64,000 bases of DNA from a phage. Both the position numbers and the translations under genes were made by a program. Location of the stretch: assembly GCA_014161675.1 (NCBI GenBank), contig GCA_014161675.1_4760.1; one strand, 5' to 3'. Position 1 is the first letter of the stretch, and each line of letters starts with the position of its first letter. Below the pieces are notes generated by a model. That model was not told the DNA's origin and did not search any database. It saw nothing but the letters and a program-made list of their open reading frames with translations. Shown here in pieces: positions 22,448-25,077 of this stretch.

Positions 22448-22786
22448 TTATTCTCCTTTCTTAAACAAATTGCGAAGCCAGTATACAAACGGGATTTCTT
22501 TAAACTTGAATTTCTCTATAGTTAATTCTTTAGTAGCAAGATGAATACCATAAGCATCATGTGTCACGATATGCCATTTTCTATAGTCCAAATGTGAACA
22601 ACCGTCTGGATCTAGGTTAATAAGAGTTTCTCGCTCACTAGGATTATTTTTCCACAATTTTGTAATAGGATCGCACATAATTCGACCTAGCGTACCATGA
22701 ATAATCTCACAACGGTAAAGTTTTCCAGCAGTGAGATAGGCGCACCCGTCATAGTCGGTATAAACAAACACTTCTTTAACACTCAT
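22448..22786 (-). CDS. hypothetical protein, two copies of a small CSHL-motif domain
   Basis: DYDGCAYL and DPDGCSHLDYRKW repeats; start at MSVKE behind AGGAG. Confidence 0.45.
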   Translation of the reverse strand: MSVKEVFVYTDYDGCAYLTAGKLYRCEIIHGTLGRIMCDPITKLWKNNPSERETLINLDPDGCSHLDYRKWHIVTHDAYGIHLATKELTIEKFKFKEIPFVYWLRNLFKKGE

Positions 22787-22843
22787 TTTAATACTCCTTT
22801 GTTTCGATGGGGGTATATTACTACCCCCGATCATGTGTGTCAA

Positions 22844-23104
22844 CTACTTTTTCAAGATTTTTTTAATTGCGTTCCAAAGACCTTTATTCTCAGGTTGTTT
22901 TGGTTCTTCAATCAGTGTCCAGGTTCGACCGTCTAAGTGTGCACAATTTTTAAGACAAATAAAAATCTGGTGTCCCTTATCATCACGGATATAACCACTA
23001 TTCGCAAATCTTTCATGTGGTGTATATTCATACAGTGTATTTGGTGTAATATACTTGCGGTTACTATAAGGTGTCATCACATACATCATGGTACTAACTC
23101 CCAA
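22844..23104 (-). CDS. hypothetical protein, CSHL-motif domain paralog
   Basis: GYIRDDKGHQIFICLKNCAHLDGRTWTL. Confidence 0.45.
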   Translation of the reverse strand: MGVSTMMYVMTPYSNRKYITPNTLYEYTPHERFANSGYIRDDKGHQIFICLKNCAHLDGRTWTLIEEPKQPENKGLWNAIKKILKK

Positions 23105-23280
23105 CGATCACCGCGAAGATGAGAACATCCACCATCAAGAAGTATCGTAATACGATAACCTATATCATCTTTGATGTAACCGATTGTCGGTGGATTTTCG
23201 TCGTCTCGTGTCGGGGTAAAATCATACATCTTTCCAGGCGTAATATCTTGTCCTTTATTGCTATTGGTATAAACTTGCAT
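23086..23280 (-). CDS. hypothetical protein, CSHL-motif domain paralog
   Basis: GYIKDDIGYRITILLDGGCSHLRGDRWEL. Confidence 0.45.
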   Translation of the reverse strand: MQVYTNSNKGQDITPGKMYDFTPTRDDENPPTIGYIKDDIGYRITILLDGGCSHLRGDRWELVP

Positions 23281-23301: not shown

Positions 23302-24000
23302 CTAACCACGGGTATAGTGTTCCAGAACAACTGTCAGATGAATATATTCTAATAGATCTTTCCAAAAGTCAACATCTGGTTCTTCCGGCATACCGTTTTT
23401 CTTTGCCTCTTCACGCGCGAGTTTAACACGCTCGTAGAGATCTTTCAATTCTTCCCGCACATTATCAAAGGTTCTTTCTCCTAACTTACACGCTAAAATA
23501 GAAGAACGTCGCGCGAGCGGGAATTGTAGATCACCAGTTTGATAGATTTCAAGTAGCTGATAACCAACACGCAGAGCATGAGAAAGATCTTTCCAGTTAC
23601 TGAAATACTTTTCAGATTTGGCTACCTGCTTTTTGAGATAGCCAGACAAACCCCACATACCAACATGATAGAATTTATCGCGATGTGTTCGGATGTATTC
23701 CCATTCTCTGGAGGATTCAATCAACATGTTACTAGGAGCGTGCACCATGTCAATAGCGCCGATATCGCCTTTACATGCCAGATTGATAAACCGTTTTAGA
23801 CTGAACATATTAACGTCAATGTCGTCTTTGGTGTTCTTGATCCCTTGACCGCTAGTGCTTTGATCATAGTGTTCTTTCATCGATCCTAAGATAATTTCTT
23901 TCGCAGTCGGAACAAAGATACCACGATAATCTTTATCTGAATTTTCAGTATCAAGGCCGTATAAGTGAGATCCGAAGACCATTTTAACCATTGTATGCAT
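23302..24000 (-). CDS. Pol-beta-superfamily nucleotidyltransferase (unknown specificity)
   Basis: FGSHLYGLDTENSDKDYRGIF = hG[GS]x9-13D[DE]h NTase signature, followed by second acidic motif DIDVNMF. Confidence 0.55.
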   Translation of the reverse strand: MHTMVKMVFGSHLYGLDTENSDKDYRGIFVPTAKEIILGSMKEHYDQSTSGQGIKNTKDDIDVNMFSLKRFINLACKGDIGAIDMVHAPSNMLIESSREWEYIRTHRDKFYHVGMWGLSGYLKKQVAKSEKYFSNWKDLSHALRVGYQLLEIYQTGDLQFPLARRSSILACKLGERTFDNVREELKDLYERVKLAREEAKKNGMPEEPDVDFWKDLLEYIHLTVVLEHYTRG

Positions 24001-24018
24001 AATTAAACCCTCATGTTA

Positions 24019-24612
24019 TTAAACATATTCAGCAACAACATTATGTTTAAAATTACCGCTCATTTTTGGATTTGGATTTTTCAATCGACTATGTATTAAA
24101 TTTTTGTTGTATCCGGTTGCTTTAGACGCTTCGCCAATACTTTGATAAACAACACCATTAACACGAATCGGACGAGACTTCTTAAACAGTTTATTCAATC
24201 CGGCATCATATGCATGGTTTTGGTTTTCTTGTCTCGTTGCGATCTCAAGATTCCAAACACAATTACAAGATTTTACCCCACTTTTATGATTAATTTCAAG
24301 CCCTTCACAATCACCTATAAAGTGTTCAGCAACTAGTCTATGAATATAGCGATATTTCTTAGTTTCCCCGTCATGCAAGCATATATTATAATAACCATCA
24401 CCAGCGCGTTTAGGTCGGAGTAGTTTACCTTTAACACGTTTTATAGTAGGGAACTCACCAAATTGATTTCGCTGGATAAACGGAATCTCGCGGTCTAATG
24501 AACGGATTCGACCATAGTTAGACACTTGATAAAAACTTTCATAGCCTTTAATTGGCTTCCATATCTCAGGAATTTCTACACCATCAATAACAACAAGTTT
24601 AAATTCTTCCAT
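24019..24612 (-). mobile_element. free-standing HNH homing endonuclease with NUMOD4-like N-terminus
   Basis: YESFYQVSNYGRIRSL (NUMOD4-like), HRLVAEHF...INHKSG...NLE...ENQNH (HNH). Confidence 0.75.
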
Positions 24613-24660
24613 ATTTCACCTCATAAAAATAAAGCCAACCCTTTCGGATTGGCTTGTCGA

Positions 24661-25077
24661 TTACATAGATTCCGTAAAGGTACGGGTGATAATATCAAGT
24701 TGTTGTTCGCGTGTCAAGGCGTTGAAGCGGGTAGCATAACCACTGATTCTAATAGTCAATTGCGGGTACTTCTCAGGATGTTCAACCGCGTCCAGCAACA
24801 TTTCTCGTAACAATACGTTAACATTCAAATGCTGACCACCTTCGACAACCGGAGCACCATTATCTACAATAACAGGACGGAAGCTAGTTGTGTGCAGTGC
24901 CAGCGAATCGACGTCTTCTGCGGCGATCACATGGTCTTCTGCGAAAGTTTTACTAACAATTACTTTAGCGCCGATCAGGGCTTTCGGTTCGGATACCAGA
25001 ATCATAGGCGCGAAATGTCCACCGATAATAGTACCTTTATGCTCACCTTTCATGATTTGAATTGCTTTAAATTCCAT
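24661..25077 (-). CDS. autonomous glycyl radical cofactor (GrcA/YfiD-like; T4 Y06I-like)
   Basis: [12 protein letters not shown]...[20 protein letters not shown]...TFTESM, near-identical to the GrcA glycyl radical domain. Confidence 0.8.

Follow-up and report, generated by a model that had tools for sequence, protein, structure and literature searches.

When textbooks explain how phages counter host anticodon nucleases, their example is the repair of cleaved tRNA by PseT and Rnl1 of bacteriophage T4; a tRNA that has lost a nucleotide by excision, as in the product of RloC, is beyond the reach of this pathway. A family of nucleotidyltransferases (NTases) was named RlaP by Burroughs and Aravind because some of its members are found in operons with RNA ligases, as recounted in the introduction of PMC12776372, and the idea that such enzymes replace lost nucleotides is credited to Burroughs and Aravind 2016 where PMC12776372 and PMC7824862 cite it. 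In a survey of jumbo phages, the distribution of RlaP mirrored that of RNA ligases, and the prediction was made that RlaP, ahead of ligation, restores the nucleotides that RloC-type nucleases take out (PMC7824862). Here we describe a phage gene of this family on a 64,000-nucleotide stretch of phage DNA (NCBI GenBank assembly GCA_014161675.1, contig GCA_014161675.1_4760.1), hereafter the window, which is the whole stretch that was analysed and to which all positions refer. The gene is an open reading frame (ORF) on the minus strand at 23302..24000, with an ATG start and 232 codons plus a stop, and it is the orthologue of T4 nrdC.11.

The closest biochemical description of the family is a preprint of December 2025, in which the RlaPs of Pseudomonas fluorescens and P. 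aeruginosa (PfRlaP and PaRlaP) add one or two nucleoside monophosphates (NMPs) to the 3′-OH of RNA (PMC12776372). Both enzymes use any nucleoside triphosphate (NTP) and also dATP, prefer Mn2+ and are inactive on DNA and protein; they prefer the broken end (the 5′ half) of a cleaved-tRNA mimic, and they partly rescue the aminoacylation of a tRNA that is missing one anticodon-loop nucleotide (PMC12776372). The same work lists T4 NrdC.11 as an RlaP in cluster 5 of Pfam family PF10127, the studied Pseudomonas enzymes being in cluster 1a (PMC12776372). The window protein shares with the Pseudomonas enzymes the Pfam family, the two-domain layout and the three catalytic aspartates. However, the Pseudomonas genes lie within rtcB-rtcA operons, and RtcB needs a 3′-phosphate, an incompatibility noted in PMC12776372, whereas the phage gene is solitary and its genome has the PseT and RnlA route (5′-phosphate and 3′-OH), with which an RlaP product would be compatible without further steps. 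A preliminary description of the ORF, made from the sequence alone, had called the specificity of the enzyme unknown; this no longer holds at the level of the family, given the in vitro addition of one or two NMPs to the RNA 3′-OH by bacterial RlaPs (PMC12776372), and the statement stands only in part.

Megablast searches with the surrounding DNA returned 59 phage records at 90–99% identity, all of them Krischvirus, the RB49-like relatives of T4 from E. coli and Shigella, and the window is itself DNA of a Krischvirus phage. In the GenBank record of RB49 the corresponding coding sequence is annotated as gene nrdC.11, with the note ‘similar to T4 tk.-11’, and T4 NrdC.11 itself (NP_049709, ‘nucleotidyltransferase’, 336 amino acids) aligns with residues 1 to 222 of the window protein (E 1e-50). 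Because of this annotation and this alignment, the gene does correspond to a named T4 gene, contrary to the preliminary description, which had found no such match. The window protein differs from the RB49 copy (AY343333) by one amino-acid change, 14 of the 15 differences among 699 nucleotides falling at third codon positions; the flanking genes differ from RB49 at 10–12% of nucleotides. Two Krischvirus records encode exactly the same protein (100% identity) and, for all the divergence of the DNA, protein identity reaches 99% or more in 58 Krischvirus records; nrdC.11 is under purifying selection. Of 50,697 phage records, 1,620 contain a homologue; these are T4-like phages of many hosts as well as phages of Mycobacterium, Gordonia and Bacillus. 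A study of 2006 assigned the COG3541 NTase domain to the orthologues, which have been recognised as NTases since (PMC1524935), and many records label the homologue ‘nucleotidyltransferase’. Elsewhere in GenBank and UniRef the homologues are widely mislabelled ‘thioredoxin’, evidently because the label was propagated from the gene name nrdC, and occasionally ‘HNH homing endonuclease’ or ‘DNA polymerase’. T4 NrdC.11 and its orthologues in the Straboviridae align with the window protein from end to end and have the same catalytic and K-H-R motifs. The T4 and window genes are alike in being early-region accessory genes, each preceded by a free-standing HNH gene, but the T4 gene lies between nrdC.10 and mobD, and the window gene lies between the counterpart of RB49 ORF097c and vs.6.

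Membership of the RlaP family is firmly established, because profile scores, invariant residues and a full-length profile alignment with bacterial members all point to it. Residues 7–191 match PF10127 (RlaP, ‘RNA repair pathway DNA polymerase beta family’) at 53.6 bits (E 3.4e-14), where the gathering cut-off is 23; T4 NrdC.11 scores 46.6 bits on the same profile, and among PHROGs the protein falls in phrog_388, ‘nucleotidyltransferase’ (2e-79). NCBIfam profiles gave no match to the window protein, and PADLOC gave a single match at chance level (0.032) and no defence NTase. Across 16–17 phage homologues of 39–57% identity, G10, S11, D22, D24 and D62 are invariant, as are H87, K124, W136, K137, S140, H141 and R144, and D60 is likewise invariant except for an N in T4. 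In 12 bacterial members G10, S11, D22 and D24 are again invariant, and the K, H and R also are, in the form K..MH..R. In a scan of bacterial genomes, Bacillaceae and Planctomycetes yielded a clade of chromosomal and prophage proteins, 250–257 amino acids long and about 27% identical, that score 64–75 bits on PF10127. When the phage-clade alignment (A2) was compared by hhalign with the bacterial PF10127 alignment (A5), the two matched over their full length (99.9%, E 3.3e-33, 236 columns), with GS, DxD, NTKDD(I/V)D, GY..Q..K, K..(S/M)H..R and LP..PD in register. The Bacillaceae RlaPs (for example, those of Bacillus tequilensis and Terribacillus) resemble the window protein in full-length homology, similar length, motifs and the lack of a large insertion; they differ in being cellular or prophage genes, at about 27% identity, and in an N-terminal extension of 15–20 residues. 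There is, in our judgement, very little room for doubt that the window protein is an active RlaP-family NTase; on its assignment to that family as the nrdC.11 orthologue, the ORF, the Pfam and PHROG matches, the RB49 annotation, the T4 alignment and hhalign agree.

The preliminary description had placed a Pol-beta NTase signature at the N-terminus, followed by an acidic motif DIDVNMF and a helical C-terminal domain, and these features were borne out. The sequence at residues 1–29 is exactly as read (MHTMVKMVFGSHLYGLDTENSDKDYRGIF, of which residues 9–29 are FGSHLYGLDTENSDKDYRGIF), and DIDVNMF occupies residues 60–66. An AlphaFold2 model built from the alignment (predicted local distance difference test (pLDDT) 90.2, predicted template modelling score 0.86) has an alpha/beta NTase domain at about residues 1–112, followed by five helices at 116–131, 136–155, 165–172, 178–201 and 210–230. 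As modelled, the fold is a Pol-beta NTase domain with a HEPN-like bundle, the classic arrangement of the KNTase type. The NTase domain is encoded at 23665..24000 and the HEPN-like bundle, residues 113–232 or thereabouts, at 23305..23664, both on the minus strand, as are the motifs within them. The hG[GS]-x10-DxD motif, from F9 to D24 (23929..23976), contains the catalytic G10-S11, D22 and D24; it is invariant in alignments A1 and A2, and its counterpart in bacterial RlaPs, GS..YG....SD.D, is also invariant. The third acidic motif is D60-I-D62 (23815..23823), found in the model where the strand 62–67 begins; its invariant D62 is the probable third metal ligand. In the helical domain, the K137-x2-S-H141-x2-R144 motif (WKDLSHALR; 23569..23592) is found family-wide in the alignments and by hhalign; it is predicted to line the substrate cleft and may bind the substrate.

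The preliminary description had also called for profile and structure searches against the KNTase, MNT, CD-NTase and tRNA-NTase families and for a check of conservation. The acidic residues proved to be conserved and the fold related, and among these families the KNTase/ANT type is the nearest. A CD-NTase or cGAS-like identity was rejected (no PADLOC or Pfam match, and a Foldseek probability to cGAS of 0.15–0.23 at a template modelling (TM) score of about 0.2), as was that of a CCA-adding or tRNA nucleotidyltransferase (no Pfam match, and none among the 50–60 structural matches listed for each search); fold searches likewise spoke against a minimal MNT. The crystal structure of PfRlaP (PMC12776372), which we compared by its description only, has an N-terminal NTase domain and a C-terminal helical domain with a cleft formed by the two, and the window model shows both domains; the PfRlaP structure was absent among the fold and sequence matches in the copy of the PDB that was searched. 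The nearest solved structure to the model in that copy is HalB of the Hailong system (PDB 9dbh, 9dbi and 9dbj; TM about 0.42, 12–14% identity). Searches of the PDB with the single sequence and with the clade profile found no NTase, and their only matches were haemoglobin (E 0.19) and the HhH-GPD Ogg glycosylases (E 0.021), the latter a marginal match that pairs ‘GIDWKALSHALR’ with the helix-hairpin-helix ‘GIGYKEASHFLR’. The Ogg resemblance covers positions 158–278 of the A2 profile, including window residues 136–144, and sets the long-form ‘NEGIDWKALSHALR.GYQ’ against ‘KGIGYKEASHFLRNVGYD’ of archaeal Ogg (3fhf and 3knt); marginal as it is, it could hint at a nucleic-acid-binding element resembling a helix-hairpin-helix.

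The explanation that we favour, and which taken as a whole we consider somewhat probable, is that the window gene is an nrdC.11 orthologue whose RlaP product extends RNA ends by one or two nucleotides as an accessory of counter-defence repair. In such an enzyme, D22, D24 and D62 would hold two divalent metal ions, Mn2+ being preferred in the characterised enzymes; an NTP would bind where the NTase domain and the HEPN-like bundle form a cleft; and the 3′ end of the RNA would be held by the inter-domain cleft and the K137/H141/R144 face of the helical domain, with one or two nucleotides being added to the 3′-OH without a template. That the substrate of NrdC.11 is an RNA 3′ end seems probable from the activity of its relatives. 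During infection, a host anticodon nuclease might cut a tRNA and remove a nucleotide, as RloC does; the phage PseT would convert the 2′,3′-cyclic or 3′-phosphate to a 3′-OH and phosphorylate the 5′ end; NrdC.11 would replace the missing nucleotide in some of the cut tRNAs; and RnlA, a ligase requiring a 5′-phosphate and a 3′-OH, would seal the break. It is because of this proposed sequence of steps that we regard NrdC.11 as a candidate accessory of counter-defence RNA repair. A role in the repair of tRNAs cut by nucleotide-excising anticodon nucleases is a fair possibility, on which we are close to evenly divided.

The genomic distribution of the RNA-repair partners is in keeping with parts of this proposal. 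RB49 encodes pseT (5′-kinase/3′-phosphatase) and rnlA (RNA ligase) away from nrdC.11, and each of the 59 Krischvirus records contains the pseT-rnlA segment. The homologue of Gordonia phage Neville shares a cluster with tRNAs and genes for a Ro-like protein and an RNA ligase, and in mycobacteriophage LeBron the homologue occurs in a genome with a polynucleotide kinase, an RNA ligase and an RNA-binding (Ro-like) protein; in Bacillus phage JBP901 no RNA ligase is annotated within about 4 kb on either side of the homologue. The adjacency to RNA ligases that gave RlaP its name, and that is true of some members only, is not seen in the window, where the neighbours are the HNH endonuclease gene, vs.6 and small ORFs; this follows from the lack of a conserved neighbour across T4-like genera, no conserved operon partner of nrdC.11 having been found in T4, RB49, Klebsiella phage Miro, Acinetobacter phage AM101 or Aeromonas phage AS-gz.

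Several observations weigh against the repair proposal. The characterised RlaPs are two Pseudomonas enzymes only, from cluster 1a and not from cluster 5, that of T4 NrdC.11, and their biological role is a proposal even in the preprint, the title of which reads ‘potentially involved’ (PMC12776372). In T4-like genomes nrdC.11 is not adjacent to pseT or rnlA and has no conserved neighbour, and the two bacterial relatives that were examined have no RNA ligase neighbours. Under laboratory conditions T4 can do without the stretch from nrdC.11 through mobD.3 (PMC9825161), which fits an accessory role and gives no phenotype. Finally, HalB is a DNA-synthesising NTase, yet it is the nearest solved structure.

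NrdC.11 proteins exist in long forms and in short ones. T4 NrdC.11 exceeds the window protein by 104 residues, and proteins of the T4 type (300–350 amino acids) have about 100 extra residues between window K131 and W136, at the junction of the NTase and helical domains. In a model of the T4-like homologue P0017, these residues form a discrete alpha/beta unit at about 131–240 (pLDDT 83–92). A fold search with this model returned NTases, HEPN-domain and other helical-bundle proteins, and among the matches listed there was none to the module. At the module site there are 17–26 residues in bacterial RlaPs and 12 in the window protein. A neighbour-joining tree without support values, for which bacterial RlaPs served as the root, shows short forms in three places, every time nested among long ones (P0002 together with the window protein; P0153; and P0143 with P0230), and their junctions differ. 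Because of this nesting, the alpha/beta module seems to have been inserted in the phage clade and then lost at least three times, a tentative reconstruction from the sequences. In 2006, two of six orthologues aligned fully to the COG domain (PMC1524935), and the partial alignments of that study probably reflect the difference between short and long forms.

Among the rival explanations, the one nearest to the favoured proposal is that NrdC.11 is an RNA 3′-end tailing enzyme and not a tRNA repair enzyme, its short tails marking tRNA fragments, or transcripts of host or phage, to be degraded or protected; its partners would then be nearby RNA-turnover genes, such as regB four genes downstream, and not PseT and RnlA. 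The family-level biochemistry is the same for both explanations, the Pseudomonas RlaPs label rRNA-sized as well as tRNA-sized RNAs with all four NTPs, a sign of low specificity (PMC12776372), and the early-region position near regB, and not beside pseT or rnlA, would suit tailing. However, the preference of PfRlaP for a damaged-tRNA mimic (PMC12776372), the co-occurrence of RlaPs with RNA ligases across phages, and the lack of a decay factor consistently linked to nrdC.11 in the T4-like genera examined make tailing an unlikely, if still serious, alternative. It is considerably less likely that the enzyme acts on a protein or small molecule, nucleotidylylating it as ANT/KNTase and Lin enzymes do, or as MNT antitoxins do when they AMPylate HEPN toxins, for example to neutralise a host toxin. 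ANT(4′)/kanamycin nucleotidyltransferase, AadA and LinB do combine an NTase domain with a HEPN-like helical domain, like the window protein; neither sequence membership of these antibiotic NTases nor a close structural match to them was found.

More improbable again is a template-independent synthesis of oligodeoxynucleotides, oligo-dA or other, in the manner of HalB, which might, for example, keep the HalA channel of Hailong closed. The position of HalB as the nearest solved fold and the acceptance of dATP by RlaP enzymes speak for it, but the similarity to HalB is at the level of the fold only, no HalB chain in the PDB is found by the clade profile even at E values up to 10, no defence NTase is matched in PADLOC, and RlaPs do not extend DNA and stop after one or two nucleotides (PMC12776372). 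HalB is a tyrosine-primed, processive oligo-dA synthase encoded with the HalA channel in a defence operon, whereas the window gene lies in the early region of a lytic phage with no HalA-like partner, its neighbours being the HNH gene and a 64-amino-acid ORF, and no close relationship to HalB was detected. A more specific version, that the compact Krischvirus NrdC.11 has secondarily lost the module, may for that reason be more than a simple repair accessory and could have a substrate range unlike that of T4 NrdC.11, in the most unusual case that of a HalB-like synthase of decoy ligands silencing a Hailong-type defence, would be a shade less probable still. The last alternative is that the RB49 form, without about 100 residues of T4, is a decaying or inactive remnant. 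Its length relative to T4 NrdC.11 and the dispensability of T4 nrdC.11 in the laboratory (PMC9825161) could be read in this way; on the other side, no catalytic or family motif is damaged, what is missing is an insertion specific to one clade, which canonical bacterial RlaPs also lack, the model is confidently folded, and the 58 Krischvirus copies are at least 99% identical with nearly all substitutions synonymous. The conservation data effectively refute this last alternative.

If NrdC.11 does perform the nucleotide-replacing step, an old ORF of T4 would complete the PseT and Rnl1 pathway, and there would be a reason for the retention of nrdC.11 in about 1,600 phage genomes. Because both gene and family already have a name and an annotation, and the functional hypothesis is in the literature, we do not present this as a discovery, and no new principle emerges from the window. 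Minor new points are the short and long forms with repeated loss of the module and the sporadic HNH insertion described below. The window protein is also a naturally minimal phage RlaP of 232 amino acids, which is convenient for biochemistry.

Directly upstream of nrdC.11, at 24019..24612 on the minus strand, lies a gene for a free-standing homing endonuclease of 197 amino acids with NUMOD4 (4e-18) and HNH_3 (2.5e-10) domains in Pfam, in agreement with the preliminary description, which had noticed a homing endonuclease adjoining the NTase. This endonuclease is a neighbour and not a functional part of the NTase. Its cassette of about 610 bp (about 24014–24628) stands in place of about 36 nucleotides of the RB49 spacer, between the vs.6 hairpin and the ribosome-binding site of nrdC.11; the latter was read from the sequence as a Shine-Dalgarno GAGGG 7 nucleotides 5′ of the ATG (24008..24012, minus strand). 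The cassette is a sporadic insertion, present in 9 of the 59 Krischvirus records and absent from RB49. In T4, the free-standing HNH gene mobD likewise lies directly upstream of nrdC.11 (T4 locus L003:1130-1909; PMC2988022), and its target gene is listed as unknown (PMC2988022). Homology between the window HNH protein and MobD was rejected (BLASTP E 0.042). The two endonucleases being unrelated, independent homing endonucleases have therefore settled 5′ of nrdC.11, and the highly conserved 5′ end of the gene may, speculatively, be a recurrent homing target.

Other features of RB49 and of the relatives touch on the RNA-repair and accessory context. RB49 ORF229c (L006:18234-18710), of 158 amino acids, is annotated ‘similar to putative bifunctional polynucleotide kinase/RNA ligase’, and rnlB (T4 24.1) is not annotated in the parts of RB49 that were examined, all but about 108.9–114.1 kb. 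Genes for NAD+ salvage or reconstitution often lie within a few kilobases of nrdC.11 homologues, as in Neville (L009), AS-gz (L065) and Miro (L063), where they encode PRPP-synthetase-like and NAPRT/NAMPT-like proteins, a ‘bifunctional protein’ and a cytidyltransferase; in LeBron (L066), the NAD+ salvage-type genes gp71 and gp72 are elsewhere in the genome. The arrangement suggests that accessory or counter-defence islands bring NrdC.11 homologues and NAD+ genes together.

In the leftward early region of the window, the order of transcription is vs.8, a small ORF, vs.6, the HNH gene, nrdC.11, three small ORFs and regB. The three small ORFs stand in tandem between nrdC.11 and regB (22448-23280, minus strand) and are the counterparts of RB49 ORF095c, 096c and 097c; they look like paralogues with the common motif G.(L/M)Y..TP...GYI.DD.G..I.I.L..GC(S/A)HL.G..W.L(V/I), and none of them has a Pfam match. 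On the other side, the vs.6 orthologue (24661-25077, minus strand) encodes a small glycyl-radical protein resembling GrcA/YfiD (PF01228, 1.9e-15), and it is more diverged from RB49 (43 of 417 nucleotides, 11 amino acids) than nrdC.11 is. A terminator scan found a G+C-rich hairpin followed by a T run 3′ of vs.6 (24632..24655, minus strand), at the upstream edge of the HNH insertion; RB49 shares this conserved hairpin. A consensus scan found, inside the 3′ end of vs.6, a sigma-70 promoter-like site, TTGACA-17-TATTAT with the TG of an extended -10 (24689..24717, minus strand; 11 of 12 consensus positions), which, judged by its sequence, could drive both the HNH gene and nrdC.11.

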